From the NCBI GenBank assembly GCA_031256725.1, contig JAIRQE010000016.1, positions 4,099-36,098 on the forward strand: a DNA stretch of 32,000 nucleotides, read 5' to 3'. A model generated the notes under the pieces. That model did not search any database, was not told where the DNA came from, and saw only the letters and a program-made list of their open reading frames with translations. The first letter of the stretch is position 1. Each line of letters opens with the position of its first letter. A program made the position numbers and the translations under genes. Shown here piece after piece: positions 6,893 to 28,066 of this stretch. The stretch comes from Propionibacteriaceae bacterium (GTDB lineage Bacteria; Actinomycetota; Actinomycetes; Propionibacteriales; Propionibacteriaceae).

Positions 6893-7168
6893 ATGGAGAC
6901 TGGTGATTTGGTTGCAGTGTGGGCCACTGAGACTGGTGTGCCCCAGAAGTTTGAGTGGCGTGGACACTCTTATGTGGTCTGTGGTCATCCTGTGCCATGG
7001 GTGGATCGCCTGCCGTGGTGGAGCCTTGGACAGGAGGGACCGCTGAATGCATTGGAGCAGCAGATGTGGAGGGTCTCGGGGGTGAATCCCGATACTGGTC
7101 ATGTCACCTGTGTGGATTTGGCTGTGGAAGAGCCCTCATGGTGGCGGCTGGCGAGTATTCACGAGTGA
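6893..7168 (+). CDS. Small Trp-rich protein of the kind found next to actinobacterial mutasome genes (DUF6504-like, family name from memory)
   Basis: The product is 91 aa: ...PQKFEWRGHSYVVCGHPVPW......WW......MWRVSG......DLAVEEPSWWRLASIHE. The GAGG SD is 6 nt upstream. The stop (7166-7168) lies immediately before the polymerase ATG at 7170. Confidence 0.65.
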   Translation: METGDLVAVWATETGVPQKFEWRGHSYVVCGHPVPWVDRLPWWSLGQEGPLNALEQQMWRVSGVNPDTGHVTCVDLAVEEPSWWRLASIHE

Positions 7169-7169
7169 C

Positions 7170-11838: not shown

Positions 11839-12782
11839 TGGGTCGCCTCAGGGGTCTGGGGTTGCGGTTTGTCCCCAATGGACGATTCTGGGTTGGGAGT
11901 CCCCTCGTCATTGTGCGCACTGCGACTTTGCGCATAGGCTTCGTCGTAGAATCCAAGATTGTACCCAGGGTTCGGGTGCTGAAATCCTGGGTCTGCAGGT
12001 GGATAATTCCCTTGCACGGGTTGCCCCATGGGTGGTGGATAGCTTGGTTGCATGGGTTGGATCATCTGGGGCTGAGCCATCTGTGGGTACCCCTGTGGCG
12101 GGCCTGGTTGAACTGGGAAACCGGGGTACTGTGGAGTAGGGGAATGGTGTCCCATGGGTGGGAACATCGAAGGTACTGCCCCTGCAAAACCGGATGGTGC
12201 TGGAGGGGGCTGACCAATGTTCGGATTAATCTGGGGATCATCAAGGGTGGCTTTATCGACTGGGTGTCCAGTGAGGTTCTCCCGATCTGTGAGGATCTCC
12301 CTCATCTGAGCGGCAATATCGGGAGTTAGCCCCGCAATTGTGGCTGCCAAAGAGGGAGAGGCCGTACTCACGGAAACACTGGCAAGGCCAAAGGCTCGTT
12401 CCAGCGGACCGACATTAATGTCAACGTACTGGATGCGAACATAGGGAATGATGGTGAGGTTGCGGTTCAAGATTCCGGAACGATAGAAGAGGTCGCGGTT
12501 GCGTAGGGCATAGGCCATGGCCTTGACTCGACGTGGAATGAGGACCGCAGTCCAACCAAAGAAAGCAGCAATGATTCCTGTTATAAGGTAGGCCCAAATG
12601 GTCGACCACAGAAGGCAGGTGACGGCGCAAATGATCGCCATGGGGATTGCAGCGATGGCCAGGCTCACCAGCCGTACAGTCGCGAGTTGGGGTTGCACCT
12701 TATTCCACTGCACATCTGGTGGATCAAAGGGGTTTGCGGGAGCACTCGTGGTTAGAGATTCAACATCAGCCATAGATCCCAT
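11835..12782 (-). CDS. YdbS-like bPH2-domain membrane protein with a long Pro/Gln/Met-rich C-terminal tail
   Basis: The N-terminal roughly 175 aa contain two TM helices plus a bPH2 block (LFYRSGILNRNLTIIPYVRIQYVDINVGPLERAFGLASVSV). The C-terminal roughly 135 aa are low-complexity, for example PPMGHHSPTPQYPGFPVQPGPPQGYPQMAQPQMIQPMQPSYPPPMGQP. Confidence 0.85.
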   Translation of the reverse strand: MGSMADVESLTTSAPANPFDPPDVQWNKVQPQLATVRLVSLAIAAIPMAIICAVTCLLWSTIWAYLITGIIAAFFGWTAVLIPRRVKAMAYALRNRDLFYRSGILNRNLTIIPYVRIQYVDINVGPLERAFGLASVSVSTASPSLAATIAGLTPDIAAQMREILTDRENLTGHPVDKATLDDPQINPNIGQPPPAPSGFAGAVPSMFPPMGHHSPTPQYPGFPVQPGPPQGYPQMAQPQMIQPMQPSYPPPMGQPVQGNYPPADPGFQHPNPGYNLGFYDEAYAQSRSAHNDEGTPNPESSIGDKPQPQTPEATQ

Positions 12783-12836
12783 TGTTGCATAGGTCGTGGA
12801 TGGGTGATCAAGTACCAGAGATTAAGGGGTGATAAA

Positions 12837-12863
12837 CTGGCACTCCCGTAGGGTGAGTGCTAG
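12837..12863 (+). promoter_or_regulatory. CIRCE element (HrcA operator) CTGGCACTC-N9-GAGTGCTAG
   Basis: This is an inverted repeat matching the CIRCE consensus TTAGCACTC-N9-GAGTGCTAA in the high-GC variant form. It lies immediately upstream of the hrcA SD and start. Confidence 0.8.
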
Positions 12864-12871
12864 GAGGTGTG

Positions 12872-13879
12872 ATGCTCGACGACCGGAAACTGGCTGTACT
12901 GCGAGCCATCGTCACCGACTATGTGCAGTCTCATGAGCCTGTGGGGTCTCGCGCGATAGTGGAGAGACACAACCTTGATGTGAGTTCGGCGACTGTACGC
13001 AATGACATGGCTGCCCTAGAGGAAGAGGGGTACATCACCCATCCCCATACCTCTGCTGGTCGAATTCCGACTGACAAGGGGTATCGCCTCTTCGTGGATC
13101 GCTTGGCGGCCATGAAACCGTTGACGAATGCTGAGAAGAAGGCCATCACCCATTTCTTGAGTGGGGCGGCTGATATCGATGACATCGTGACCAGAACAGT
13201 ACGACTCCTTGCTCAGGTAACTCAACAGGTTGCGATCATGCAGTACCCAACCATGGGTGCCGCAGTGGTACGCCGAGTCGATCTCATATCCCTCCATGAT
13301 TCTCGGGGGCTGCTCATTGTGGTCAACTCCTTGGGGAAGGTGGCCCAGCGTTCTATTGATTTCGGATCGATGGATGAGGAGTCTTTGACCCAACTCAGGG
13401 ATCGACTCAATGATGCTCTTGCGGGGCTGGGGCCAAGCCGTGCTGCCCAGGTTCTCGCGGATTTTTCCTCTACCGTTTCCCCGGAAGTACGCCCGATCAT
13501 CCATGGGATTGTTGCTGGTGTACTCGATATCCTGGCTACAGATCAACCAACAAGAATTGTCGTTGCTGGGATCAATCATGTCTCCCAGTTTTCTGATGAG
13601 TTTGAGACCTCGATCCGACCCGTACTCGACACCTTGGAGGAGCAGATGGTACTCCTCAAACTCTTGGGGGAGGCCTCAGCTGAGGTGACTGTACGCATCG
13701 GTCAAGAAAATGAGCATGCGAATCTGTCCACGGCATCCGTGGTCGCCTCTGGCTATGGTGTCGATGATGCCTGGGCAGGGCTTGGAATCGTCGGGCCGAC
13801 CCGCATGGACTACCCCTCAACGATGGCATCCGTACGCGCCGTCGCCCGTTATGTGAGCCGGATACTGGCTGAAGGATAA
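12872..13879 (+). CDS. hrcA: Heat-inducible transcriptional repressor HrcA
   Basis: The sequence [72 protein letters not shown] is canonical HrcA. I chose the ATG at 12872 (AGGAGG 5 nt upstream). The ORF-track GTG at 12857 lies inside CIRCE. Confidence 0.95.
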
Positions 13880-13880
13880 A

Positions 13881-15029
13881 ATGACAACTGATTATTACTC
13901 TCTCCTTGGCGTGCCCAGGGATGCCTCCGACGAGGAGATCAAGAAGGCCTACCGCAAGCTCGCCATGAAGTACCATCCCGACGTTGCGAGCGAAGAGGGT
14001 GCAGCCGAGAAGTTTAAGGAGATTGGCGAAGCCTATGAGGTCTTGTCCGATCCCCAGAAGAAGAGCGTGTACGACCGTGGTGGAGATCCCTGGGGTGGCG
14101 GTGGTCCCGGCTTCTCAGGCTTCGGAGGTACCTTCGATTTCTCGACGATCATGGACGCGATGTTCGGTGGTGGAATGGGATCCAGAGGGCCACGATCTAG
14201 GGTTGCTCGCGGACAGGATCGCCTTGAGCGGATGTCGTTGCCCCTTGTGGATGCCTCTTTCGGTGTGATACGCGAGATTACTATCGAGTCTCTGGTTCTC
14301 TGTGGATCCTGTACAGGCTCAGGTGCTGCGGATTCCTCTAAGCCAGTGAGCTGTCGTATATGTCAAGGCCGTGGCGAGGTCACCCAGGTTCAACGCTCCT
14401 TCATCGGCGATATCCGTACCTCCTCCCCATGCCCCCAGTGTCGAGGATTCGGATCAATTATCGAAAACCCCTGCCCGGAATGCTATGGCGACGGGCGGGT
14501 CAAGATGAAGCGCAACCTCTCGGTCAAGGTTCCAGCAGGTGTAACAACTGGTAATAGAATCCGTCTTGAATCCCAAGGCGATGTGGGTTCCGGTGGTGGC
14601 CCTGCTGGTGATCTTTATGTTGAGTTGGTTGTCTCCGAACATGAGATGTTTACCCGCGCAGGGGACAACCTTGAGACCACTCTCAAGATTCCGATGACTG
14701 CTGCTGCCCTCGGGGCGGAACTCCATCTGGCAACTATTGATGCCGAACGTGAAGGCTGTGAACCTGGTGACGCCATCGCTATGGTGACGATCACAGCGGG
14801 TACCCAGACCGGTTCCAAGTTGGTGGTCAAAGGTCGTGGCGTACCAAAGCTTCGTGGGCGTGGCCGTGGAGACATGATCATCCATGTTGTCGTCAGCACA
14901 CCAACCAACCTTGATGATTCCCAGCGCGAATTGCTTGGGCAATTAGCAGGACTCCGTGGTGAGGATGGGCCCATCAAACCTCGTGCTGACAAGGGATTCT
15001 TCGACAAACTACGCGAGGCATTTTCGTGA
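13881..15029 (+). CDS. dnaJ: Molecular chaperone DnaJ
   Basis: It has a J domain ([31 protein letters not shown]), a G/F-rich linker and four CxxCxGxG zinc-finger motifs. Confidence 0.95.
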
Positions 15030-15808
15030 GCGACGGGTTCTTCGTCGGATATATTCCTGAGGATTCATCCCCTGGGAGTCAGGTTTTTCTCGAGGGTTCT
15101 GAGGCTCACCATGCTGCAGTGGTACGGCGGTTAGCCGTGGGTGAGTCGGTCGTGATCGCCGATGGATTGGGTCGAGGGGTTGTGGGGGTTGTTGACTCTG
15201 TATCAAAGACCCGAGTATGTGTTGAGGTTGAGTCTGTGGTGGATGCTCCCGAATCCCCACTGAGGATCACCGTGGCCCAGGCTTTCCCGAAGACCGATCG
15301 CGCTGAACTGGCGGTGGATCTGATGACCGAGGTTGGAGTCGATGAGATCCTGGGTTGGGCTGGGGCTAGATCCCAGGTTCGCTGGACGGGGGAGCGTGGT
15401 GAGAAGGCTCACAGTAAGTGGGTGAATGCTGCACGAGAGTCCTCAAAACAGTCTCGACGTTTGAGGTTCCCAATGGTCGGACCCTGGGTTTCTGCCACTG
15501 AGGTTGCTCGCAGGATCGCTGAATCCGAATACGGGATCATCATGCATGAGAAGGCCACTCGCTCGATTGTTGACTGTGTACTTCCAAGCCAGGGTGATGT
15601 TGTGATTGTCATTGGCCCCGAGGGTGGCCTAAGTGATGATGAGGTTCGTACCTTTGAGGATGCCGGTGGTCAGACCTATTCCATGGGGGAGACTGTGTTG
15701 CGTACCTCGACTGCTGGCGCGGTCGCTGTCACACAAGTCCGCCTGTTGTCTCAGCGGGGCCGGTTCGTTTCTGACACATTTTCGTGTCAGAGGGGACAGG
15801 TCATCTGA
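15026..15808 (+). CDS. rsmE: 16S rRNA (uracil1498-N3)-methyltransferase RsmE
   Basis: The GTG start overlaps the dnaJ stop. Family blocks are present: [40 protein letters not shown] and LRTSTAG. Confidence 0.9.
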
Positions 15809-15830
15809 CGTGAAGGGAATAAGGTAATCA

Positions 15831-17099
15831 ATGATGGATGATTCGCGCTTGGTGAGTTCTGGATCCCGCGACGAAGTCGACACTTTCTCATTCACTCCAG
15901 GTACTTCCATCCCGGGTCGACTTGGTCGTACCGGGGTCATCCACACCCCGCACGGGGATATTCGTACCCCTGCTTTCATTGTTGTTGGTACGGCTGCAAC
16001 CGTGAAGGGGGTACTTCCTCGAGACATTAAAGACCTGGGAGCTCAGGCCGTACTTGCGAATGCTTACCATCTGTACCTCCAACCAGGCTCTGATATCGTC
16101 GACGAAGCTGGAGGAGTGGGGTCCTTTATGGGATGGGATGGGCCAACTTTTACTGACTCGGGGGGGTTCCAGGTCCTGAGCCAGGGGGCAGGATTCAAGA
16201 AAGTGTTGGCTATGTCAACAGCGGGCCTGGCAAGCGATGATGTGATCGCCAAGGGCAAGGATCGACTGGCTGTGGTTGATGATGATGGGGTGAATTTCCG
16301 CTCCTATCGTGACGGATCCAAACACCGCTTCACCCCTGAGGTTTCGATGGGAATCCAGCATCAACTCGGTGCGGACATCATGTTTGCCTTCGATGAATGT
16401 ACGACGTTAATGAACACCCGTGGGTACCAAGAAAGTTCCCTGGATCGTACCTATGCCTGGGCTTTGCGCTGTCTCGCGGAACATCGTCGGTTGACTGTGG
16501 AGAGGGTAGGGAAGCCCTATCAGGCGCTCTTTGGGGTTGTCCAAGGAGCTCAATTTGAGGACCTCCGACGTAAGGCTGCGCGAGATCTGGCTGAGGCTGA
16601 GGTCGATGGACAGATCTTCGACGGCTTCGGTATCGGTGGGGCCCTAGAGAAGGAGAACCTGGGTACGATTTGCCGCTGGGTGAACGAGGAACTCCCAGTT
16701 GACAAGCCGAGACACCTGCTGGGCATCTCTGAGCCAGAGGATCTGTTTGCTGCTATTGAGCAGGGTGCGGATACCTTCGATTGTGTGAACCCTTCAAGGA
16801 CAGCACGCAATGGGCGGGCCTACACCCACGAGGGTTGGTACAACGTGGACACCCTCCCCTCAAAGCGTAGTTTCACCCCTATCGAGGAGGGCTGCGATTG
16901 CTACACCTGCGCCCACTACACCCGCGCCTACCTCCATCATCTTGCCCGCTCCAAGGAACTTGTTCTCTATACCCTGATGACAATCCACAATGAACGTTTC
17001 CATGTACACCTAGTCGACCAAATCCGAAAATCCATCGACGGTGGCTACTTTGATGACTACAGAACCGACTTCCTTGGAAGGTACCGCCGTCCAGCCTAA
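15831..17099 (+). CDS. tgt: tRNA-guanine transglycosylase (queuine/preQ1 tRNA-ribosyltransferase) homologue
   Basis: Conserved Tgt blocks include GRTGVIHTPHGDIRTPAFIVVGTAATVKG, LANAYHLYLQPG, FTDSGGFQV, MFAFDEC and TFDCVNPSRTARNG. The zinc site CDCYTC...H is also present. A roughly 25-30 aa insertion follows GGFQV, and GGALEKE replaces the usual GGLAVGE. Confidence 0.85.
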   Translation: MMDDSRLVSSGSRDEVDTFSFTPGTSIPGRLGRTGVIHTPHGDIRTPAFIVVGTAATVKGVLPRDIKDLGAQAVLANAYHLYLQPGSDIVDEAGGVGSFMGWDGPTFTDSGGFQVLSQGAGFKKVLAMSTAGLASDDVIAKGKDRLAVVDDDGVNFRSYRDGSKHRFTPEVSMGIQHQLGADIMFAFDECTTLMNTRGYQESSLDRTYAWALRCLAEHRRLTVERVGKPYQALFGVVQGAQFEDLRRKAARDLAEAEVDGQIFDGFGIGGALEKENLGTICRWVNEELPVDKPRHLLGISEPEDLFAAIEQGADTFDCVNPSRTARNGRAYTHEGWYNVDTLPSKRSFTPIEEGCDCYTCAHYTRAYLHHLARSKELVLYTLMTIHNERFHVHLVDQIRKSIDGGYFDDYRTDFLGRYRRPA

Positions 17100-17153
17100 C
17101 TCCGGCCAAAGATTAACGTCTGTACGCCATGGAAGCTCCAAAAGTGGTCGACT

Positions 17154-19253
17154 TCACCTGTCCGCGAGGCTGGCTTCTAGGGCTTCGCTGATGATGGGTT
17201 CCAGGAAGGGCGCAAGAGACAGGGCAAAGGTTTTGGTCATATGCTGGTCATCCCAGGTCCATAACAACCCGCCCACAACACTGCGGCAGGTACTCTCGTC
17301 ACACATGGCATCATTGAGGTCGACTGCTGTGATGGCTGGGCTCGTACTGTTAACGGCTGCTTCATAGAGATGATCCTCGTACACAACACTGTCTCGGGGA
17401 TAATCACAGGCACTGTAATCGGATTCATGACTAGAGACGCAATCCGGCGCACGTTCGTGAAGTACAGGTGCATGTCGGATGACGAGAACATGGAATCCTC
17501 GGGAAGTCAGGTCATCAAGAATGTCGACGAACATCTGTCGGTGTACCTCTGCCTGGTCCTGTTCAGGTACACCAACGAGACTGGTTTGGAGAGTACGGGA
17601 GACCATGACGATGAGATCCACATCTCGGTTGGTGAGTTCATCAATGGTGTAGTTTGTCCATCCGAGACATCCTGGGCGAGTCCTATCAGATCCAACTAGT
17701 TCCATGGTTGCCGGATAACAGGCGCCAGCAAGGTGGGAGGAAAGCTTCCAGTTGTTCTGATCGGCTAGGACTATAAGCGGATCAAGATAGGGGATTGCGT
17801 GGGAATTGCCCCACAGTGCCACTGAGGGAGCATCAGCATTCTTGGCCCCAAACTCGCAGACGGGATAATGAGTGGGATAGTCGACGGTCCAGCGGCAATC
17901 CGTTTTGTAGGTGATGCTCAGATCCTTGATTGTTTGGGTGGGTGTGAAGTACAGGGTCTCACCATGGGGATCGCGGCCCTCACAGGCTGGATCAAGTGTC
18001 ATCGCAGCACCCACACAGGTTTCACTCGCAGGAATGGTTGGCAGCTTCGTATTTCCTAGAACATAGGTAACAACTGCACCTGGTGCTACCGCGAGAGCCA
18101 TTCCCACTACTAGGAATATGAAGGTACGTCTCAGGGGTACTCCCAAAGGATGGAGTCCACGGAATTTATCCTCAATGAAGGTTTTGGTACACGCGGACAG
18201 AACCAGAGTTAATGCAATTGCCGCGAGTTTGATGGGCCAAGTCATCTCGCGTCCCACAGCATGAGGTGTCAAGACCACGAAGGGCCAATGCCACAGATAG
18301 ATGGAATAGGACCAATCCCCAATAAGTTGAACGGGTTTCCAGCGAAGTACCGTGTCGAAACTGATGGAATGCTCACCAGGGCCACCACCAATGACAAGAA
18401 CAGCGCCGAGAACGGGAATCGCAGCGATCCAGCCAGGGAAGTTCTCTCCAGTCACGAAGAACCCTGACCATATCATCATCGACAAACCTGCTGCGACAAG
18501 GCCAAGCTTGATCCAAGGATGTTTCGACAGCCGAGTCGCAAGCCACGGGTACACCACTGCAAGGAGGCCACCTAGACCTAGTTCCCACATTCGTGTGGTG
18601 GTTACAAAATAGGCCTTCGGTGGGTACACGGCGGTGTAGTATACCGACCAGGTGAAGGAGGTTAGGACGACTGCTGCAATGCCGATCCCTACTCCTCGAC
18701 GAAACCGGCGACCTGTGATCAGGGCGATGGCTGCGATAAGAATCGGCCACACGAGATAGAACTGTTCCTCAACTGATAAGGACCAATAGTGCTGGAGTAC
18801 TGTCGGTGGTGATCCTATGGCGAGGTAGTCAACCGAGCGTGCAGCAAGATGCCAGTTCTCGACGTAGAGTGCTGCCATGATACCTGAGAGTCCATTGGGA
18901 TCCCGCTGGGTTCTTGGGACGAGGAAAACCATTGCTGCTGTGGCCACGATGATGACCAGGAAGGCGACAGGTAAGAGTCGACGTACTCTGCGTCCCCAAA
19001 ATTCGACGACATCCATGAATCGCTTGGGTGGTTTATTCACCAGATGAGAGGTGATGAGGAAGCCTGAGATGACGAAGAAAACATCTACGCCGACAAAGCC
19101 GCCTTGAACACGGTGTGGCCAAAAGTGGTAGGCCAGAACAAGTCCGACCGCCAGAGCACGCATCCACTGAATGTCGATTCGGACACCATGGTGACTGTGG
19201 GTACTATCTCCAACTTTCGCCTCAGGGGCGTCGTTGTTGATGGTCCTCGTCAT
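17154..19253 (-). CDS. Acyltransferase-3 family membrane protein with a C-terminal SGNH-like domain (OafA/OatA-type O-acyltransferase)
   Basis: The N-terminus (RIDIQWMRALAVGLVLAYHFWP...GGFVGVDVFFVISGFLIT) is followed by about 10 TM segments and a soluble C-terminal domain. The start is uncertain: ATG at 19253 is used here, while the ORF track uses TTG at 19274. Confidence 0.85.
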   Translation of the reverse strand: MTRTINNDAPEAKVGDSTHSHHGVRIDIQWMRALAVGLVLAYHFWPHRVQGGFVGVDVFFVISGFLITSHLVNKPPKRFMDVVEFWGRRVRRLLPVAFLVIIVATAAMVFLVPRTQRDPNGLSGIMAALYVENWHLAARSVDYLAIGSPPTVLQHYWSLSVEEQFYLVWPILIAAIALITGRRFRRGVGIGIAAVVLTSFTWSVYYTAVYPPKAYFVTTTRMWELGLGGLLAVVYPWLATRLSKHPWIKLGLVAAGLSMMIWSGFFVTGENFPGWIAAIPVLGAVLVIGGGPGEHSISFDTVLRWKPVQLIGDWSYSIYLWHWPFVVLTPHAVGREMTWPIKLAAIALTLVLSACTKTFIEDKFRGLHPLGVPLRRTFIFLVVGMALAVAPGAVVTYVLGNTKLPTIPASETCVGAAMTLDPACEGRDPHGETLYFTPTQTIKDLSITYKTDCRWTVDYPTHYPVCEFGAKNADAPSVALWGNSHAIPYLDPLIVLADQNNWKLSSHLAGACYPATMELVGSDRTRPGCLGWTNYTIDELTNRDVDLIVMVSRTLQTSLVGVPEQDQAEVHRQMFVDILDDLTSRGFHVLVIRHAPVLHERAPDCVSSHESDYSACDYPRDSVVYEDHLYEAAVNSTSPAITAVDLNDAMCDESTCRSVVGGLLWTWDDQHMTKTFALSLAPFLEPIISEALEASLADR

Positions 19254-19275
19254 GGGATGAATACTATGGCACAAC

Positions 19276-19309
19276 CCATGTGAGGTGGAAGTCCATGTGA
19301 GGTGGAAGT
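19276..19309. repeat. Perfect tandem duplication of a 17-bp unit (CCATGTGAGGTGGAAGT x2)
   Basis: This was read directly from the sequence: 19276-19292 equals 19293-19309. It lies between the pnkp stop and the acyltransferase start. Confidence 0.9.
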
Positions 19310-19354
19310 CGAGTTAATCTGCTTGTCTGGAAAACTCGCAGAAAAAGTTTCTCG

Positions 19355-21940
19355 TCATAATCTGGGATCCACTGGTTCGCTTTCTAGGGCTAGGACACCG
19401 AAGATGCATTCGTGTACTCGATGAAGGGGGTCGCCGTTGACGAAACGATCCAGGGATTCCATGCCGAGTGCGAACTCTTGAAGTGCAAGTCGACGCTTTG
19501 TGGACAGGGAGCGTTTCTTCAAGCGGGGGAGGTTTTCCTTGAGAAGGTACTCTGGGCCGTAGATAATGCGCAGGTATTCCCGGCCTCGGCATTTAACTGC
19601 GGGCTGGATGGGTGCTGAATCGCCATGACCAATAAAGTCGAGGGGTTTGACCACCATCCCCTCACCACCGGAAGCAGTGAGATCCTGCCACCACTGGATT
19701 GCGGTCATCGTACTCTTCTCATCTGAAAGGTCCACAAGAAGGTGGTCAGTCGCCATGAAGATGGGGTCGATGCCAGTCATGTGTTTGGCAATGGTTTCCA
19801 TGTGCCACAGATGGTTTCGATCCGAGTACACATGCCCCTCGGTTGCAAGAATATGGAAGGGAGCGATGCGATAATCCTCGATGCTTGTGACCTCCCAGCA
19901 GTACCTCCGATAGGCTTCAGCATAGTGGTCTAGGGCCTCGGCGCGAGCCTGATACCTCTCGGCTAGAGCCGCAAGATCAAGGGTCTTCTTTTCTTGGTTT
20001 GGCCGTGCCAACGTGTCGTCCAGACAAGCGGATTCAAGCTTGTCCGTGAGTACAGCACAAGCACTTGTGATCGCAGCAACCCCAGCAGCTAAACCTACAC
20101 TCCCAGCGCGACTCACGGGAGCGAATTGTTCGCGGAGAAGACCCTGAGCCTTGGCTGACCAGGGCATGAGTTCTGCATCCAAACAAACCCAATCTGTGGA
20201 GTACTCATCCCAGAATCCTGTTCTGGTGAGGACATCATCAAGGCTTGTCAACAGGGTTGTCTCAGTATCATCCTCAAAGAAACGCCGACCTGTGCGTGTG
20301 TAGATGATTCCACGGGTACCATCAGCAATCCTGAATCGACGTTGAGCCACACTCTCATCTCGACACAGGATGATCACAGCACGTGACCCCATGTGTTTGC
20401 GCTCACAAACAACCTGGGTCACACCACGCTTGCGGTAGTACTCGAAGGCTTGCGAGGGATCTTCCAAATAATCATCAAGGGTACTCGTCTCGCAGGGGGA
20501 CATCGTTGGTGGCAGATAGATCAACCATCTGGGATCTGCAGCAAAACGACTCATAACCTCAAGGGCAGCAGCTGAGTTCTCTGCGTTGATCTTGATGGAT
20601 TTGCGTAGGGTCGTTGACAGGAATCTCTGCCCCAAAACATCATCCACATTCAATAGATCCCCGCTGGTCGTGGGTGGATGCAGTGGTTTGATGAGTGTGT
20701 AATACTCCCGAGCCGCCTCAATCTGTACGACTTCTTTTTCAGGGTAACGAAACCCTGTCAGCTTTCCACCAAAGACGCAACCGGTATCAATGCAGACAGT
20801 ATTGTTGATCATTTCGATCTCGGGGGTGGGCACATGCCCATAGACGACGAGGGCTGAACCACGGTAATCATTCGCCCAAGGCAGACGTACAGGCAGGCCA
20901 TACTCATCAGTCTCACCAGTGGTGTCTCCGTACAAACAGAAACTGCGAACTCGCCCAGAACTGCGCCCGTGGTACTTCTCAATCAGCCCAGCATGGGCGA
21001 CAACCAACCTGCCACCGTCGAAGACGTAATGACTGATCAAACCATCCAGGAAACTCTCGACCTCTGTACGAAATTGGCTGGTTTCCGCATCCAACTGAGC
21101 CATGGTGATGTCGATCCCATGGGTCATGTTTGTGAGTCCGCGACGCAAGATCCGAACGAGTTTCGCATCATGATTGCCAGCCACACAGTACGCTGCACCC
21201 GAGTTGACCATGGACATCACAAGACGCAGGACATCGGTGTTCTTGGGACCGCGATCACAGAGGTCACCAACGAAGATCGCTCGCCGCCCCGATGGGGGAG
21301 TAGCCTGATGATTCTCCTTGTCAACCGCATATCCCATGGTGTCCAAGAGTGAGCACAACTCATCGTAGCAACCGTGTACGTCTCCGATGATGTCGAAGGG
21401 TCCAGTCTCATCTTTCTTGTCATTCCACAGCCGAGTACGATGGATCTCCACGTGAGCGATCTCATCCTCACTGTTCAGAACATGAACATAGCGAAACCCC
21501 TCCTTCTTCAAGGTTTTGAGGGTATGACGCAACTGCTCCATCTGACGGTGGATCACCTTCGCAGGGAAACTCCGATCGCTACGCTGGGCATGGCGCTCCA
21601 CGCAGGTGGCTTCCGGCAGGTTGAGTACGATGGCGACCGCGTGAACATTCTGCTCCTTGGCGAGATTGAGCACAGCTGCCCGAGCATCCTTGTGGATATT
21701 TGTGGCATCGATCACAGTCAACAGCCCCAGATCCAGTCGCTTATTGGCGACGTAATACAGGGTGTCGAAGGCTTGGCGGGTCACCTTCTCGTTGTTCTCA
21801 TCATCAGAAACCATGGCTCTAAAGAAATCCGAAGAGAGGATTTCAGTTGGTTTGAAGTGGCGCTGAGCGAAGGTAGATTTCCCCGAGGATGACACTCCAA
21901 CCACGGCAACGACTGCGAGTTCAGGAATCTCTATGCGCAT
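19355..21940 (-). CDS. pnkp: Polynucleotide kinase-phosphatase/ligase Pnkp (bacterial RNA repair enzyme)
   Basis: The 861-aa product has three modules. The N-terminal P-loop kinase carries GVSSSGKST. The central calcineurin-type phosphoesterase carries GDVHGCYDEL, GDLCDRGP and GNHD. The C-terminal adenylyltransferase/ligase carries the KxxG lysine motif CERKHMGSRAV. The ATG overlaps the hen1 stop and is preceded by GGAGGTGA. Confidence 0.9.
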   Translation of the reverse strand: MRIEIPELAVVAVVGVSSSGKSTFAQRHFKPTEILSSDFFRAMVSDDENNEKVTRQAFDTLYYVANKRLDLGLLTVIDATNIHKDARAAVLNLAKEQNVHAVAIVLNLPEATCVERHAQRSDRSFPAKVIHRQMEQLRHTLKTLKKEGFRYVHVLNSEDEIAHVEIHRTRLWNDKKDETGPFDIIGDVHGCYDELCSLLDTMGYAVDKENHQATPPSGRRAIFVGDLCDRGPKNTDVLRLVMSMVNSGAAYCVAGNHDAKLVRILRRGLTNMTHGIDITMAQLDAETSQFRTEVESFLDGLISHYVFDGGRLVVAHAGLIEKYHGRSSGRVRSFCLYGDTTGETDEYGLPVRLPWANDYRGSALVVYGHVPTPEIEMINNTVCIDTGCVFGGKLTGFRYPEKEVVQIEAAREYYTLIKPLHPPTTSGDLLNVDDVLGQRFLSTTLRKSIKINAENSAAALEVMSRFAADPRWLIYLPPTMSPCETSTLDDYLEDPSQAFEYYRKRGVTQVVCERKHMGSRAVIILCRDESVAQRRFRIADGTRGIIYTRTGRRFFEDDTETTLLTSLDDVLTRTGFWDEYSTDWVCLDAELMPWSAKAQGLLREQFAPVSRAGSVGLAAGVAAITSACAVLTDKLESACLDDTLARPNQEKKTLDLAALAERYQARAEALDHYAEAYRRYCWEVTSIEDYRIAPFHILATEGHVYSDRNHLWHMETIAKHMTGIDPIFMATDHLLVDLSDEKSTMTAIQWWQDLTASGGEGMVVKPLDFIGHGDSAPIQPAVKCRGREYLRIIYGPEYLLKENLPRLKKRSLSTKRRLALQEFALGMESLDRFVNGDPLHRVHECIFGVLALESEPVDPRL

Positions 21941-23307
21941 GTCACCTCCAGGTTCCCATCACTGGTGAAAACCCCCATCTGTGTGGGGGTACCACAGGTT
22001 TCGTCCTCATCCCCAACACCAAGGAATGCCACTGTGTACCCATAGCGCTGGGCAGTTGTATGAGCCCATTCTTGGAACTCTGCGCGGGTCCACTCGAAAC
22101 GATGGTCCTCATGTCGATGCCCCGATTCGACTCCATAGATTTCGTTGTATTCACTATTGGGGGTTGTCACCACGATAGTGCGCGGCCTCGCGTATTCAAA
22201 GAGTACCCGTTCGAAGGCTGCCAAACGACCCAGATCAAGATGCTCAATGACTTCAACAACACATGCAGTGTCGTACCCAGAAAAGCGCGCATCCCTATAG
22301 GTGAGGGATCCTTGGATGAGGGTGATTCGGGACTGCATTGATTCGCTGGCATCGGTGAGCATTAGACGCTCAGAGCTTTTTTCGAGGGCATGGTGTGCTA
22401 CATCAACCCCAGTGATCTTCGTGAACTGACTATCTTTGACAAGGAGTTTTAGGAGGTTTCCTTCGCCACAACCTAGATCAATCACAGTGGAGGCACCACT
22501 AGCTTTGACCTGGTTGAGTACTGCTTGGAGTCGTACTTCGTTGAGACGGGGAGGCTTTTCGGGTGCCTCAGTGGGGATGAGATCCCCATCGTTTGCACTC
22601 ATGGCAGCCAGTTGCTCGAACGCCTGGTTGACAAGTCGTCGCTGACGTTTGAGATAGCGATCTGTGATGTACTGTTTCATCGGATGGTCAGCCAGCCAGC
22701 CCTCACCCATTCTCAACAGTTTGTCGACCTCTTCAGAATCCACCCAATAGTGTTTGTGGGCATCAAAGACCGGCATCAAAACATAGAGATGCTTGAGGAG
22801 GTCTCGCAGGCGTACCTCTCCTGTGATGGTGAGGTTAACATATGAAGCCTGCCCCCATTGGTGGAATTGATCATCAAGGGTGAAACTCTCCCATTCGACC
22901 TCATAACCCAAGGGTTCGAAGACTGCTGACAGATTCTGGTGGTTTCCCCGACAGGGAAGCATCGTGACCGTGGCGGAAAGGTTCAACCTAGAATCGGCCA
23001 ACTCCTGATGGAAGTCGCCTCGACCGGTCATGGCTGTACCAAAGGCTTTCGTGAGCGCTGTACTCATGAGGGAGGAAGAAACATAGGGGCGGTCGTTGAC
23101 ATAGTCGTAGCCTGATCTCTTGGAGAGTCCGATAGGGTCAACATCCAGCAGTAGTGCCACTGTGGTACGTTCACGCGAGACCTCAGGATAGAAGACATAG
23201 GCTTTCCCAAAACTGAGTTCCACCACCTGAGGGCGTGCCGGATTCTTAAACAGGAGGTACCCAAGTTCGGTCGTATTCTGTCCCAGATAGGTGATGGTCA
23301 ACAGCAC
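21931..23307 (-). CDS. hen1: 3'-terminal RNA ribose 2'-O-methyltransferase Hen1 (bacterial type)
   Basis: The product is 458 aa. The N-terminal MLLTITYLGQNTTELGYLLFKNP block is typical of bacterial Hen1. The C-terminal SAM methyltransferase carries VIDLGCGEGNLL and EVIEHLD. It overlaps pnkp by 10 nt. Confidence 0.9.
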   Translation of the reverse strand: MLLTITYLGQNTTELGYLLFKNPARPQVVELSFGKAYVFYPEVSRERTTVALLLDVDPIGLSKRSGYDYVNDRPYVSSSLMSTALTKAFGTAMTGRGDFHQELADSRLNLSATVTMLPCRGNHQNLSAVFEPLGYEVEWESFTLDDQFHQWGQASYVNLTITGEVRLRDLLKHLYVLMPVFDAHKHYWVDSEEVDKLLRMGEGWLADHPMKQYITDRYLKRQRRLVNQAFEQLAAMSANDGDLIPTEAPEKPPRLNEVRLQAVLNQVKASGASTVIDLGCGEGNLLKLLVKDSQFTKITGVDVAHHALEKSSERLMLTDASESMQSRITLIQGSLTYRDARFSGYDTACVVEVIEHLDLGRLAAFERVLFEYARPRTIVVTTPNSEYNEIYGVESGHRHEDHRFEWTRAEFQEWAHTTAQRYGYTVAFLGVGDEDETCGTPTQMGVFTSDGNLEVTCA

Positions 23308-23331
23308 GAAACTAGCTTATATGTACGATCC

Positions 23332-24048
23332 TTATTGAAGAACTCGAACTTCACGGCGTTTTAGCCAGGGGATGATCAGTAGTGTTAAGGGGAGTAGGAG
23401 TACTTCCAACCCGACTTTGTAGAGATAGCCGACAACAATGTAGTTGCCTAAGGTGCCCCAGTCGACGATGAAGGCCCAGGCAATGGTACAAAACAGGATG
23501 GTGTCTGCGGCTTCGCCAACAACTGTTGAACTGATGAGGCGGAACCACAGGGATCCGGGTTTTGCGCGATCACGGAGTTTCACCAGGATCTTAGCGTTGA
23601 GGAGTTGACCCACAAGATAGCCGACGAGGGAACCGATGACGATCCGAAGTACCACACCCATCACCGAGATCCAGGCTTCCTGATTCCCCCAACTCGGGTC
23701 GGGGGGGAGTACCCCTACGATGAAGAAAACTAGAGCCGCGACCGCAGAGACCACGAAACCCATGAAGATTGCTCGGCGGGCCTTTTTGAAACCATAGACC
23801 TCGGCCAAGCAGTCACCCAGGATATAGGTCAAGGGGAAGGTCAGGGCCCCACCGTCGAAGACGAGCGGAAAGACATGGATGCCCAAGGGAGTCCATGTGG
23901 GGCCAAGCGCAATGAGTTTCGAGGCTGCCACATTGGCGATCAGCAGGAGGGCGCAAAACCCTGCCACCACGAGGTCATAAACCCCAGTGGGAGTCTCACG
24001 AAGGGCTGCTCGTGAAGTTTCATTCTGCTCATTCACAGGTAGCATCAT
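23332..24048 (-). CDS. yhhQ: YhhQ/DUF165 family queuosine-precursor transporter
   Basis: The product is a 238-aa polytopic membrane protein with family blocks FDGGALTFPLTYILGDCLAEVYGFKKARRAIF and STVVGEAADTILF. Its stop lies 24 nt upstream of the hen1 start. Confidence 0.85.
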   Translation of the reverse strand: MMLPVNEQNETSRAALRETPTGVYDLVVAGFCALLLIANVAASKLIALGPTWTPLGIHVFPLVFDGGALTFPLTYILGDCLAEVYGFKKARRAIFMGFVVSAVAALVFFIVGVLPPDPSWGNQEAWISVMGVVLRIVIGSLVGYLVGQLLNAKILVKLRDRAKPGSLWFRLISSTVVGEAADTILFCTIAWAFIVDWGTLGNYIVVGYLYKVGLEVLLLPLTLLIIPWLKRREVRVLQ

Positions 24049-24098
24049 ACTGGTTGGAGAATCAGCGCTAGAATGGGTACCACATCATTACAGGGAGG

Positions 24099-25133
24099 TT
24101 GTCCATTACGTCGTCTGACACTGAGACTCGTTTAGACTCTCGGCGCGTTGTTGTGCCCACCTCCATACCGATGGTGGCTGTTCTTGGCCCCTCCGATGAG
24201 TTTCTGCGCCTCCTCGAGAAGACTCTGAAGGCCGACATCTATGTCCGTGGTAATGAGATTACGTTGAGTGGATCTCGTGAGGCTATGAACCATGCCGAGG
24301 ATGTACTTACCCAAATGGTGACCATTGTGCGTACCGGGCAGGGATTGAGCTTGGCAGATGTGTCCAGGATTGCCGAGATGGTAGGTACGGAAACCCTTGA
24401 AGCAGCAGAGGTTCTCACCCAGTCGATCCTCTCCCATAGGGGGCGTACCATCCGGCCCAAGACTGCGAACCAGAAGAGGTATGTGGATGCCATCGACTCC
24501 AATACCATCGTCTTCGGTATCGGCCCAGCCGGAACGGGGAAAACCTATCTGGCCGTGGCAAAGGCTGTACAAGCCCTCCAGGCCAAGCAGGTTTCCCGGA
24601 TCATTTTGACTCGTCCAGCGATTGAGGCAGGGGAGAGGTTGGGATTCCTTCCGGGGACGCTCTCCGAGAAGATTGACCCCTATCTTCGTCCCCTCTATGA
24701 CGCCCTTCATGACATGCTTGATCCTGCATCTGTACCGCGGCTGTTGACGGCTGGCACGATTGAGATCGCGCCACTGGCGTACATGAGGGGTCGTACGCTC
24801 AACGACGCATTCATCATCCTTGATGAGGCCCAAAATACTTCGATGGAGCAGATGAAGATGTTCCTGACCCGACTGGGATTCGGATCAACCATGGTTGTCA
24901 CAGGGGACATCACCCAGATCGATCTGCCTGGTGCGACGAAGTCGGGTCTCAAAGAGGTCACCGGAATCCTGGATGGAGTCAGGGACATCAGCTTCTGCCG
25001 GTTGACGAATCAGGACGTGGTACGTCACCCGCTCGTTGGGCATATCGCAGCAGCCTATGACACCTATGAGGCAAGGCGAGTCACACATGAAGAACCCAGA
25101 AAAGGGCAGAGGTCCCGGAAGGTAGTTGAATGA
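24099..25133 (+). CDS. phoH: PhoH-like ATPase
   Basis: Walker A is GIGPAGTGKTYLAV, and the blocks RIILTRPAIEAGERLGFLPG, DEAQNT and VVTGDITQIDLP are present. The TTG start taken from the ORF track directly abuts the GGGAGG, so the true start may be further downstream. Confidence 0.9.
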   Translation: MSITSSDTETRLDSRRVVVPTSIPMVAVLGPSDEFLRLLEKTLKADIYVRGNEITLSGSREAMNHAEDVLTQMVTIVRTGQGLSLADVSRIAEMVGTETLEAAEVLTQSILSHRGRTIRPKTANQKRYVDAIDSNTIVFGIGPAGTGKTYLAVAKAVQALQAKQVSRIILTRPAIEAGERLGFLPGTLSEKIDPYLRPLYDALHDMLDPASVPRLLTAGTIEIAPLAYMRGRTLNDAFIILDEAQNTSMEQMKMFLTRLGFGSTMVVTGDITQIDLPGATKSGLKEVTGILDGVRDISFCRLTNQDVVRHPLVGHIAAAYDTYEARRVTHEEPRKGQRSRKVVE

Positions 25134-25594
25134 TAGACATCAATAATGAATCCGGAAGAATGGCTGACGAAAAAGGCCTCGTCAGGTTGGCTCGATTTGC
25201 TCTAGACATCCTCCATATTCATCCTGAGGCAGAGTTGTCGATCCAGTTGGTTGATGAGGCAACCATGTCGGCTTATCACGAGAAGTTCATGGGGGAGCCC
25301 GGGCCGACCGATGTTTTGAGTTTCCCGATGGATGAACTACGTCCAGGCAAACCCAATGGCGAGGAACCGCTTGGGGTCCTCGGTGATGTTGTACTCTGCC
25401 CTGAGGTGACCGAGCGTCAGGCAGCTGACACGGGGCGCACCCCCCGACAGGAGGCTGAGTACCTTCTCATCCACGGAATCCTTCACCTTCTGGGTTTCGA
25501 TCATGGTGAGCCTCAGGAAAAGGCTGTGATGTTTGGGTTGAATGACCAGATCATTGAGGCATGGACGAAGGAATCTAGGAGTGCGAATGCCTGA
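25130..25594 (+). CDS. ybeY: rRNA maturation endoribonuclease YbeY
   Basis: The zinc motif HGILHLLGFDH is present and the ATG overlaps the phoH stop (ATGA). Confidence 0.95.
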   Translation: MIDINNESGRMADEKGLVRLARFALDILHIHPEAELSIQLVDEATMSAYHEKFMGEPGPTDVLSFPMDELRPGKPNGEEPLGVLGDVVLCPEVTERQAADTGRTPRQEAEYLLIHGILHLLGFDHGEPQEKAVMFGLNDQIIEAWTKESRSANA

Positions 25595-25618
25595 TCCTGT
25601 TCAACCTGGGAGTCCGCG

Positions 25619-26920
25619 ATGACCCTTGCAGTACAAATAATCCTGCTCGTGGTCTTCCTGGTGATCGCGGGGTTCTTCATGGCGATCCAGGAGGGTTTCT
25701 CCACCCTGTCCAAGGGGCAAGCTCGCAAGCTCGTTGACGATGAGGTGAAGAAGGCCGACAGGGTTGCCCAGATCGCAGCTGATCCCGCGCCAACAGTCTC
25801 CACGGCCCTATTTCTGAGGCTTGTCGGTGAGGTTGGTTTCGCTGTTGTTGTCGTGAACCTCTTTATGACTAGGGTTAATGCGAGCCCAATCTGGTCTCTC
25901 TTGGGCGCAGGAACAGTAGTTCTCATCACTTTGTTTGTGATTGTTCATGTGTCTGCTTGCACCCTTGGCCGCCAGAAGGTGGTCGCTGTGACTCTCAGCA
26001 CATGTACCCTCATGAAGCTGCTCACCTCTGTCTTTTTCGTTATCCCGCAGTTGATGATCCTGGTTTCCAACATCATCACCCCAGGTCGGGGATTTCCTGA
26101 CGGACCCTTTGCCTCTGAAGATGAGCTCCTAGAGTTCGTGGACAGGGCTGAGGCCTCCAACCAGATTGAGGCCGATGAACGCAAGATGATCTACTCGGTC
26201 TTCGATCTGGGTGACACCCTCGTTCGTGAGGTGATGGTACCTAGACCCGACGTGGTCTATATCGAGGAGGGGAAGACCCTCAGGCAGGCCTTAGCGCTCA
26301 CCCTGCGTTCAGGTTTCTCCCGTATCCCTGTGACTGGAGCCAAGGGCCTTGACGATGTGATCGGTATCCTCTACCTAAAAGACATTGTCAAGCGTGTTTT
26401 CGACAAGTCGGATGCCCAATCTTCGGAACTCGTTTCCTCTTTGGTACGGCCTGTCACATGGTGTCCTGACTCGAAACCGGCAGATGATCTCCTGCGTGAG
26501 ATGCAGGCGGCACATATACACATGGTTGTTGTGGTTGATGAGTTCGGTGGTACAGCTGGAATCGTTACCATTGAAGACCTCTTGGAAGAGATCGTTGGAG
26601 AGATCCAAGACGAGTTTGACCAGGAGATTGACCCTGTGACCCAGATCTCTGAGGGTGTCTACCGGGTTTCATCACGACTGTCGCTGGCAGACTTGGGGGA
26701 TCTGTTTGAGATGGAACTTGACGACGAGGACGTGGATTCTATTGGTGGGATCCTCGCCAAGAAACTCAACCAGGTTCCCATCCCAGGCTCAACACTGACA
26801 TGGGAGGGCCTGGAGATGACTGCCGATCAGTACGCAGGTCGCCGCCACCAAATAGCAACCATCATTGTTCACCGAGCAGTCGAAGGCGATGAAGGTACTG
26901 ATGAAGGGATCACACGGTGA
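25619..26920 (+). CDS. DUF21/CBS-pair/CorC_HlyC domain membrane protein (hemolysin/CorC family)
   Basis: The N-terminus has TM segments. These are followed by [23 protein letters not shown] pairs and a C-terminal transporter-associated domain. The gene sits in the conserved position between ybeY and era. Confidence 0.9.
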
Positions 26921-27846
26921 TCGAGACAACCCAACCCATCCACCACTCTGGTTTCGCCTGCTTTGTTGGGCGACCCAATGCTGGAAAGTCAACTCTGACG
27001 AATGCCCTTGTAGGTACGAAGGTAGCCATCGCCTCAGATAAGCCACAGACCACCCGCCACATCATTAAAGGGATTGTGACAAGGGATGATGGTCAACTCG
27101 TGATCCTGGACACTCCTGGGATTCACCGACCAAGGACACTGCTTGGTGAACGTCTCAATCAGTTGGTCTATGACACCTGGTCCGAGGTGGATGTGATCGG
27201 TGTATGTCTGCCTTGCCCGGAGAAGATCGGGCCAGGGGATCGTCACCTCATCACCGAGATTGCCAACCTCAAGAATCGACCAACCCTGATGGGGCTCGCC
27301 ACAAAGGTTGATCTCGCTGGGAAACCACGGATTCGGGAGCACCTGATCGACATTCAAAAACTTGAATCCGAGTTGGGTATCGAGTGGGCGCAGATCGTAC
27401 CCGTCTCGGCAAAGACTGGAGAGAATATCGACCTTGTTCGGGATCTCTTGGTGGGTACATTGCCTGAGGGGCCGCGGTACTATCCAGACGGAGAGGTGAC
27501 CGACGAACCGACGGAAACCCTTGTGACAGAGCTGATCCGAGAGGTTGCCCTAGGGCTTGTTCATGAGGAACTCCCGCATTCGATCACTGTCACCATTGAA
27601 GAAATGGGGTTGAGGCCAGAACGCGATAAGCCCCTGCTCGACATCTTTGCCAACCTCATTGTTGAAAGAGATTCTCAGAAACCTATCATCTTGGGGAAAA
27701 AGGCTGAGCGTCTCAAGCAAATTGGTACCGAGGCTCGCCAAAGGATCTCACGCCTAGTGGGAACGCCTGTTTACCTGGATCTGAAGGTCAAGGTGATGAA
27801 GGAATGGCAGCGTGATCCGAAGGCCCTCAACCGCTTGGGATTCTAA
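26917..27846 (+). CDS. era: GTPase Era
   Basis: G1 is GRPNAGKSTL, G3 is DTPG, and a C-terminal KH domain is present. The GTG start overlaps the upstream stop. Confidence 0.95.
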   Translation: MIETTQPIHHSGFACFVGRPNAGKSTLTNALVGTKVAIASDKPQTTRHIIKGIVTRDDGQLVILDTPGIHRPRTLLGERLNQLVYDTWSEVDVIGVCLPCPEKIGPGDRHLITEIANLKNRPTLMGLATKVDLAGKPRIREHLIDIQKLESELGIEWAQIVPVSAKTGENIDLVRDLLVGTLPEGPRYYPDGEVTDEPTETLVTELIREVALGLVHEELPHSITVTIEEMGLRPERDKPLLDIFANLIVERDSQKPIILGKKAERLKQIGTEARQRISRLVGTPVYLDLKVKVMKEWQRDPKALNRLGF

Positions 27847-28017: not shown

Positions 28018-28038
28018 TCGTTGGGGACAACGATTTTT
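28018..28038 (+). terminator. Candidate intrinsic terminator (TCGTTG-GGGA-CAACGA-TTTTT)
   Basis: It has a 6-bp stem, a 4-nt loop and a 5-T run. It lies about 170 nt after the era stop and 29 nt before the ATG of the large secreted protein. The stem is short, so confidence is moderate. Confidence 0.45.
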
Positions 28039-28066
28039 GACCCGTGATTCAGTGAAGGAGGAGGCG

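Follow-up and report, generated by a model that had tools for sequence, protein, structure and literature searches.

The stretch analysed here, referred to as the window, comprises 32,000 nucleotides of a Propionibacteriaceae bacterium (GenBank assembly GCA_031256725.1, contig JAIRQE010000016.1, positions 4,099 to 36,098 of the forward strand), and the present work deals with the five genes lying between rsmE and phoH. The interval 15809-24098 is the exact rsmE-phoH gap and holds, on the plus strand, tgt (15831-17099) and, on the minus strand, an AT3-SGNH membrane O-acyltransferase gene (17154-19274), pnkp (19355-21940), hen1 (21931-23307) and yhhQ (23332-24048). It is bordered on the left by hrcA (12857-13879), dnaJ (13881-15029) and rsmE (15026-15808), recognized by Pfam and NCBIfam, and on the right by phoH (24099-25133), ybeY (25130-25594), a gene for a CNNM/CBS/CorC protein (25619-26920) and era (26917-27846), recognized by the same families and by synteny; all seven are encoded on the plus strand. 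Genes were called from a map of open reading frames (ORFs) combined with Pfam and NCBIfam scans at equivalog cut-offs, ORFs of at least 100 amino acids being scanned. A previous reading made from the letters alone (the sequence-only reading) had named the same twelve genes, all of which are present with the coordinates and strands it had assigned, and had taken the five genes in the gap for one accessory block devoted to tRNA modification and RNA repair.

Two collections were scanned for comparable loci. The RsmE scan of the genome collection, where the lineage of the window is sparsely represented, yielded 80 loci, the best match (66%) being a metagenome-assembled genome (MAG) of the Propionibacteriaceae, L001, and the next named member of the family Granulicoccus (L003). 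The Tgt scan of the metagenome collection provided further loci (L083-L162), including L083, the closest relative. The twelve window proteins were compared by tblastn with the genome loci and then with the metagenome loci, 162 comparison loci in all. The order hrcA-dnaJ-rsmE is kept in about 75 of the 80 genome loci, and the arrangement hrcA-dnaJ-rsmE ... phoH-ybeY-CBS-era was found by tblastn in Micromonospora, Streptacidiphilus, Actinoplanes, Catellatospora, Jiangella, Frankia and others. Among the 79 loci with both rsmE and phoH, the smallest gap between them is 149 bp, the largest 7,976 bp and the median 3.6 kb; that of the window, 8.29 kb, is larger than every one of them. Therefore, the variable slot within a conserved actinobacterial backbone is real, and the sequence-only reading was right both about the synteny and about the variability.

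The comparison with L083 is the one that sets the scale of what is specific to this genome. The identities of its proteins to those of the window are 77% for HrcA, 78% for DnaJ, 86% for Tgt, 72% for YhhQ, 81% for PhoH and 78% for Era, and its gene order is hrcA-dnaJ-rsmE-tgt(+), a 3.6-kb spacing, yhhQ(-) and phoH-ybeY-CBS-era. The DNA of both loci, aligned by blastn, is collinear over window positions 12828-17077 (about 72% identity in the left backbone) and again over 23390-27827, with breakpoints at 17077/23390 in the window and 5274/8891 in L083. The segment enclosed, 17078-23389, holds the AT3-SGNH gene, pnkp and hen1 and has no counterpart in L083, which carries at the same place a 3.6-kb cargo with an ABC-type ATPase and four ORFs without a Pfam match. 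Neither pnkp, hen1 nor the AT3 gene was found in the L083 locus, relaxed thresholds included, and no remnant of the L083 cargo was found in the window, the sole ABC-ATPase match being an unrelated transporter gene at 5030-6646. The lineage-specific part thus comprises 6.3 kb of the 8.3 kb, and only AT3-SGNH, pnkp and hen1 are missing from the closest relative. The scale has to be corrected: the plastic site narrows from the rsmE-phoH gap as a whole to the junction at which tgt and yhhQ meet with convergent 3' ends, and it is there that turnover actually takes place.

The two genes at the edges of the slot have a history of their own. Tgt, a tRNA-guanine(34) transglycosylase, scored 401 bits with TIGR00430 (cut-off 307), and has, in alignment with Z. 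mobilis TGT, the motifs TDSGGFQ, FDEC, FDCV, CxCxxC and HN, with the Zn site and the catalytic Asp residues in place. YhhQ, a queuosine-precursor transporter (COG1738/QPTR, Vut_1 PF02592), scored 116 bits with TIGR00697 (cut-off 51), its gene being divergent from phoH across a 50-bp gap. The frame rsmE-tgt(+) ... yhhQ(-) ... phoH, with tgt and yhhQ convergent, recurs in seven related loci (L083, L003 from Granulicoccus, L086, L087/L088, L093 and L111), and in an eighth, L085, tgt occupies the slot and no yhhQ was detected. The spacing between both genes goes from 117 bp (L087/L088) to 3.6 kb (L083); in L092 it reaches 8.5 kb, phoH lying beyond the fetched end. The tgt gene directly follows rsmE in 14 loci and was found in the slot in none of the 71 loci which are not Propionibacteriaceae-like. 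Tgt is 86% identical to its counterparts in L083 and L001 and 71-75% to those in L003, L085-L088 and L111; across loci its identity follows that of the backbone (Spearman rho 0.74, n=7, p = 0.058), the pattern expected under vertical inheritance. The yhhQ gene, 72% identical to that of L083, agrees with it in position and orientation, and the DNA alignment between window and L083 is unbroken over the yhhQ-phoH intergenic region. Since the frame recurs in related loci and Tgt identity follows the backbone, we conclude that tgt and yhhQ have long resided in this slot within the Propionibacteriaceae-like clade.

These data bear directly on the proposal that a single thematic island, made up of all five genes and concerned with tRNA modification and RNA repair, came as a unit into an rsmE-phoH hot spot. 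The slot is certainly variable, its size in the window exceeds all 79 gaps measured, and four of the five gene products either work on RNA or furnish one of its bases, all of which the proposal would explain; but tgt and yhhQ are present in the seven related loci without the other three genes (L083, L003, L086, L087, L093 and L111 contradict a joint arrival), the collinearity of window and L083 takes in both of them, and the three components differ in phylogenetic affinity. The five genes do not hold together as one accessory block, tgt and yhhQ being in the slot in seven relatives and tgt alone in the eighth, and a single acquisition is considered extremely unlikely.

In a wider sample, yhhQ was present in the fetched locus in 31 of the 82 actinobacterial tgt loci and within 400 bp of tgt in 22 of them, and it is known that yhhQ often clusters with queuosine genes (PMC5372724). 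Regarding the substrate, the Tgt loop patterns described are GGLAVG for prequeuosine 1 (preQ1) and GG[LS][AS]G for queuine (PMC11570991). The loop in the window, GFGIGGALEKE (GGLAVGE in Z. mobilis), is two residues shorter and matches neither pattern, a shortening seen throughout the 82 actinobacterial loci examined. Some 30 additional residues (window residues ~120-149, 'GFKKVLAM..DDVIA..RLA') are likewise a clade-wide insertion, and the position equivalent to Cys158 is Cys in 45 loci, the window included, and Leu in 37. The non-canonical loop concerns the prediction of the substrate, not family membership, and the substrate specificity of this Tgt subfamily may be worth testing. No preQ1 riboswitch or other Rfam element was found at gathering score across the window, and at E <= 5 only one chance-level small nucleolar RNA match appeared within 15700-24300; preQ1-riboswitch control is frequent, not obligatory, among YhhQ/COG1738 transporters. 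As a separate observation, in L001 (2145-5780) the genes after tgt encode a cytosine/purine permease, an isochorismatase-family hydrolase and a PNP_UDP nucleoside phosphorylase instead of YhhQ, a set which could represent an alternative route of queuosine-precursor salvage.

The central part of the segment is formed by hen1 and pnkp, which are co-oriented and overlap by 10 nt. Pnkp, a trifunctional enzyme combining a polynucleotide kinase with a 2',3'-phosphatase and a ligase, scored 1339 bits with TIGR04075 (cut-off 750) over residues 1-861 and contains PF13671, PF00149 and PF16542, that is, an N-terminal P-loop kinase, a central metallophosphoesterase and a C-terminal adenylyltransferase/ligase, each of which matches a structure of C. 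thermocellum Pnkp (4DRF, 4J6O, 4GP6). Its motifs are intact: the Walker A GVSSSGKS at 15-22, GDVHG at 186, GDLCDRG at 225, GNHD at 255 and KHMGSR at 515, whose ligase lysine we take to be Lys531 of CthPnkp. The phosphatase residues are as listed for this family (PMC3675462). Hen1, a 3'-terminal RNA 2'-O-methyltransferase with a ligase-activating N-terminal domain, scored 621 bits with TIGR04074 (cut-off 340); it combines PF12623 (Hen1_L, residues 1-234) with methyltransferase domains, matches PDB entries 4DQZ and 3JWG, and carries the S-adenosylmethionine motif DLGCGEG at residue 277. Both proteins match their equivalog models over the full length, and, judged by domains and motifs, hen1-pnkp is the canonical C. 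thermocellum-type Pnkp-Hen1 cassette. In that type of system the 5'-OH is phosphorylated, the 2',3'-cyclic phosphate removed, the 3' ribose 2'-O-methylated and the ends sealed, the repaired junction resisting re-cleavage (PMC3675462; PMC4411300), and the activity of the window cassette would be the same heal, methylate and seal reaction, given its orthology with the systems of C. thermocellum and A. variabilis.

The relatives of this cassette lie far from the host. The 120 best Pnkp homologs share 65-70% identity with the window protein, and those with a name belong to Clostridiales Family XIII, Peptococcaceae, Oscillospiraceae, Gracilibacteraceae, Defluviitaleaceae, Spirochaetes/Treponema and Holophagales MAGs; the nearest Pnkp is 70% identical, its cluster comprising a single contig. 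One Propionibacteriaceae MAG is among these best homologs (P0054, 67%), with the gene at a different locus, while Rhodococcus and Nonomuraea Pnkp are only 50-53% identical. In the Pnkp tree the window protein and P0054 branch separately beside a Clostridia-dominated clade, far from that of Rhodococcus and Nonomuraea, and the Hen1 identities are split in parallel, 59-63% versus 46-50% on the Rhodococcus/Nonomuraea side. These affinities suggest that the cassette is part of a widely exchanged clade centred on anaerobic Clostridia, and hen1-pnkp was most likely acquired horizontally or relocated. The gene phylogenies of the slot are thus divided: the Pnkp tree and the Hen1 identities are incongruent, which favours foreign origin, and Tgt shows the vertical pattern described above. 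The accessory or foreign content claimed in the sequence-only reading was therefore borne out for one part, hen1-pnkp, which is lineage-specific and Clostridia-affiliated according to the identities, the Pnkp tree and the L083 breakpoints.

The opposite polarity would place hen1-pnkp, with or without AT3, between tgt and yhhQ already in the common ancestor, with later loss or replacement in all the relatives sampled. The composition of the segment, indistinguishable from its flanks, agrees with this, and the related cassette of the second Propionibacteriaceae MAG (67%) means that the cassette may be old in the family. Nevertheless, loss or replacement would have to be assumed in seven distinct related loci, with different cargos or none, the other MAG holds its cassette elsewhere, beside guaA, and the window Pnkp and P0054 are not sisters, both being 66-72% identical to members of the Clostridia-dominated clade. 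This ancestral presence is regarded as unlikely.

The behaviour of the cassette elsewhere is that of a unit without a fixed place. The hen1->pnkp arrangement is the same in 11 of 11 comparison contexts, which were compared for their neighbours, and the neighbourhood is different each time: guaA and MazG in the Propionibacteriaceae MAG (L081, 324-6611), ksgA and rsmI, GmrSD with a serine recombinase, an RtcB gene 7 kb away, a CCA-adding enzyme with a MiaB-like gene, guaB and a guaA-like gene on either side in L171 (154-7375), or an uncharacterised protein of 508 residues at one end and, at the other, a two-component system with an ABC/FtsX transporter. In L174 (GCA_031551205.1, JAVBNY010000008.1, 6115-13887) the neighbours are RtcB, a PrfH-like RF-1 protein and DMP19, followed by hen1 and pnkp, with a resolvase nearby; about 0.5 kb beyond them, in the downstream direction, an RlaP nucleotidyltransferase is encoded on the opposite strand. 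That locus is a real RNA-repair island, showing thematic clustering of a kind not seen in the window. Full-length Pnkp was also found on 16 plasmid records, flanked by insertion sequences (IS) in two annotated plasmid loci (Rhodococcus, Leptospira), and in none of 50,697 phage records, where only partial kinase-phosphatase similarity (22-26%) was obtained. Membership of a defence system was considered and discarded, PADLOC giving only a generic methyltransferase match for Hen1. As a side observation, hen1-pnkp lies 4-10 kb from the pur operon in L082 (1-4285), and together with the guaB/guaA neighbours in L171 and L081 this may point to a recurrent purine-gene neighbourhood, in a very small sample.

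The third gene of the segment follows another pattern. The AT3-SGNH protein, of the OafA/YrhL type (PF01757 and PF19040), has its best homologs, at 48-54% identity, in Propionibacteriaceae MAGs wherever the source is named, and the next ones, at about 40%, in Microbacteriaceae, Nocardioides and Cellulomonas; therefore, the gene follows taxonomy. It was found in the slot in none of the 162 comparison loci. Judged from the sequence, the true start is likely the ATG at 19253, and the spacer between pnkp and this start then measures 101 bp. Within it stands a perfect tandem repeat of 2 x 17 nt (19276-19309, minus-strand unit ACTTCCACCTCACATGG), 22 nt upstream of the likely start; the duplication is internal and flanks no element, and it could be an operator or a junction scar. 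The family homolog P0126 adjoins a teichoic-acid-type Glyphos_transf (glycerophosphotransferase) gene, and the AT3-SGNH enzyme probably decorates a cell-envelope glycopolymer, without any link to RNA. Identity as a SucT ortholog was rejected (NF058601, 216 bits, far below the cut-off of 1275).

Putting these elements together, the reading preferred here, to which a probability of about 0.75 is given, is that the rsmE-phoH gap is a nested composite of at least three gene histories and not one acquired block. Gene identities, motifs, presence or absence in relatives, DNA breakpoints and phylogenetic affinities are direct observations. In the process envisaged, tgt and yhhQ would have stood convergently in the slot since before the window lineage split from its Propionibacteriaceae-like relatives, as a salvage pair in which YhhQ would import a 7-deazaguanine base and Tgt would put it in the place of G34 in the tRNAs for Asp, Asn, His and Tyr. 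The gap between their 3' ends would be the plastic site, filled in this genome by hen1-pnkp: Pnkp would heal RNA ends with a 2',3'-cyclic phosphate and a 5'-OH, Hen1 would 2'-O-methylate the 3' end, and the N-terminal domain of Hen1 would activate the Pnkp ligase, giving a sealed junction that resists re-cleavage. An AT3-SGNH gene of the family's own type would have come to lie in the same gap. Because of parsimony and of the affinities of Pnkp and Hen1, we infer a gain here and not repeated loss elsewhere, and the number of events is likewise deduced.

Several points weigh against this composite reading or limit it. The arrangement is known from the window genome alone, the closest relative stands at about 80% amino acid identity, and the polarity of gain or loss is given by parsimony; the Pnkp tree is a neighbour-joining tree of 22 sequences, with taxon labels taken from MAG annotations. 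Furthermore, no tRNA or tmRNA gene was found in the window with ARAGORN, no integrase or transposase domain in the ORFs scanned, nor any IS remnant, and no flanking direct or inverted repeats, only short two-copy matches, often due to chance, so that the absence of such signals in the sequence-only reading was confirmed by ARAGORN, domain scans and repeat search. Composition was equally silent, and the check for deviation in guanine-plus-cytosine (GC) content, codon usage and k-mers gave no signal in the segment: the GC of the segment genes is 0.52-0.53 versus 0.54-0.56 in the flanks, for AT3, pnkp and hen1 the codon-usage divergence (Kullback-Leibler, KL) amounts to 0.03-0.06, which falls inside the backbone-gene range or under it, pnkp having the lowest value in the window, the tetranucleotide distance profile is flat, and the GC at third codon positions (GC3) of the three genes is within the range of the others. 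Since there is no mobility gene and no compositional signal, the route and date of acquisition are invisible, as the sequence-only reading had said of the mechanism, and an old event or an intragenomic move is indistinguishable from a recent transfer. A second genome with the same arrangement did not turn up in the genome and metagenome scans, which used RsmE and Tgt, no collection-wide Pnkp scan having been made.

The same compositional data are useful when considering an artefact of assembly, in which a Firmicutes fragment would have been chimerically joined into an actinobacterial metagenome contig. Such an error would account for Clostridia being the nearest named Pnkp relatives and for this Pnkp being recorded on one 36-kb contig, but pnkp and hen1 match the rest of the window in GC3, codon usage and tetranucleotide profile, genes of Propionibacteriaceae type (AT3-SGNH and yhhQ) stand on both sides with short intergenic spacers, and no Clostridia protein comes close to being identical, about 70% being the figure reached. 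Practically no credence is given to a chimera.

The remaining question is whether the RNA theme of the slot is meaningful. The part of the claim which stands is that RNA is acted on, or supplied with a base, by four of the five products; what does not stand is the unity of the theme, given that the four belong to two known pairs without recurrence and that the fifth gene product probably acts on the envelope. In fact, neither pnkp nor hen1 was found near tgt in any of the 82 actinobacterial tgt loci checked (within the fetched flanks), and neither tgt nor a Vut_1 (yhhQ) gene near pnkp in any of the 11 pnkp contexts. Moreover, the backbone itself is rich in RNA genes (rsmE, ybeY, era), and therefore any insertion there would look thematic. 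We infer that the proximity of tgt/yhhQ and hen1-pnkp is coincidental, an example of how an apparent functional theme can arise by chance where a cassette lands among RNA genes.

A functional coupling would demand, by contrast, a selected yhhQ-hen1-pnkp operon, joining precursor import to repair and 2'-O-methyl immunisation of anticodon-loop breaks in the tRNAs that Tgt modifies, for instance after damage by colicin-E5-like ribotoxins, which cut the tRNAs for Tyr, His, Asn and Asp at position 34/35. Colicin E5 reportedly cleaves exactly the four tRNAs modified by Tgt. The organization of the genes is compatible with such coupling, since only 24 bp separate yhhQ from hen1, hen1 shares 10 nt with pnkp, and the junctions between the block genes, that of yhhQ and hen1 included, yielded no terminator-like site; because of these three features co-transcription of yhhQ, hen1 and pnkp is plausible. 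The promoter side of yhhQ, within the divergent yhhQ/phoH intergenic region, is conserved with L083, promoter-like sites as such being fewer than in shuffled sequence, and repair of ribotoxin-cleaved tRNA by Pnkp-Hen1 has been achieved in vitro (PMC4411300). Nevertheless, the two pairs do not recur together in the tgt loci and pnkp contexts just mentioned, no preQ1 riboswitch or other Rfam element was detected, and neutrality alone would lead one to expect insertions downstream of a convergent gene, so that the coupling is judged very unlikely. The specific scenario in which hen1-pnkp was captured into the yhhQ transcription unit and selectively kept, as a co-expressed module for anticodon maintenance and for defence against ribotoxins acting at Q34/G34 (queuosine or G at position 34) of the Asp, Asn, His and Tyr tRNAs, is held to be highly unlikely. 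Were co-regulation of queuosine salvage and tRNA repair true, the locus would provide a natural system to ask which tRNAs Pnkp-Hen1 protects in vivo.

Apart from the slot, some features of the window deserve a brief description. In the CNNM/CBS/CorC protein, the N-terminal CNNM membrane half (25619-26213) has no DNA or tblastn counterpart in L083 and the C-terminal half is 81% identical, which may reflect local divergence or domain replacement inside the backbone. Upstream of hrcA there is a gene for a DnaE-type homolog of the DNA polymerase III alpha subunit with 1,126 residues (7101-10481, plus strand), followed by two convergent genes on the minus strand for proteins with the bacterial PH domain bPH_2 (10483-11838 and 11835-12782), placed directly upstream of hrcA. 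Beyond era, 28037-31720 encodes a protein of 1,227 residues with a PBP_like_2 (phosphate-binding-protein-like) domain and Big_1 and Invasin_D3 immunoglobulin-like repeats, which is probably a surface protein.

When compared with systems already described, the components of the slot are all familiar. As in the known Tgt and YhhQ salvage pair (Zallot et al. 2017, PMC5372724; Quaiyum et al. 2024, PMC11570991), tgt lies near a COG1738 transporter gene, although in the window the two are separated by 6.2 kb of unrelated cargo. Like the fused O-acyltransferases of the OafA/YrhL group, the AT3-SGNH protein has a membrane domain (Acyl_transf_3) at its N terminus fused to an SGNH domain at its C terminus, M. 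smegmatis SucT being a distant relative and not an ortholog. With classical genomic islands the window shares the patchy phyletic pattern, the incongruent pnkp/hen1 phylogeny and the variable slot, but it lacks the integrase, tRNA gene, flanking repeats and compositional signal; absence from relatives together with incongruent phylogeny is seen for pnkp and hen1 and not for tgt and yhhQ, and AT3-SGNH is absent from the slots of relatives yet has its affinity within its own family. Pnkp-Hen1 is an operon-like cassette present in 10 phyla (PMC3675462), and the window has the same gene order, overlap, domains and catalytic motifs as the cassettes of the Clostridium thermocellum and Anabaena variabilis type studied by the Shuman and Huang laboratories; no structural difference exists, and it is special only in its host and in its site immediately downstream of yhhQ. 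It would add one more crossing between phyla, with a cassette of Clostridia type, fully ameliorated and lacking mobility genes, residing in a Propionibacteriaceae-like genome. Every component belongs to a known family, and the arrangement is a one-off juxtaposition, the product of ordinary gene flux at a junction of convergent genes.

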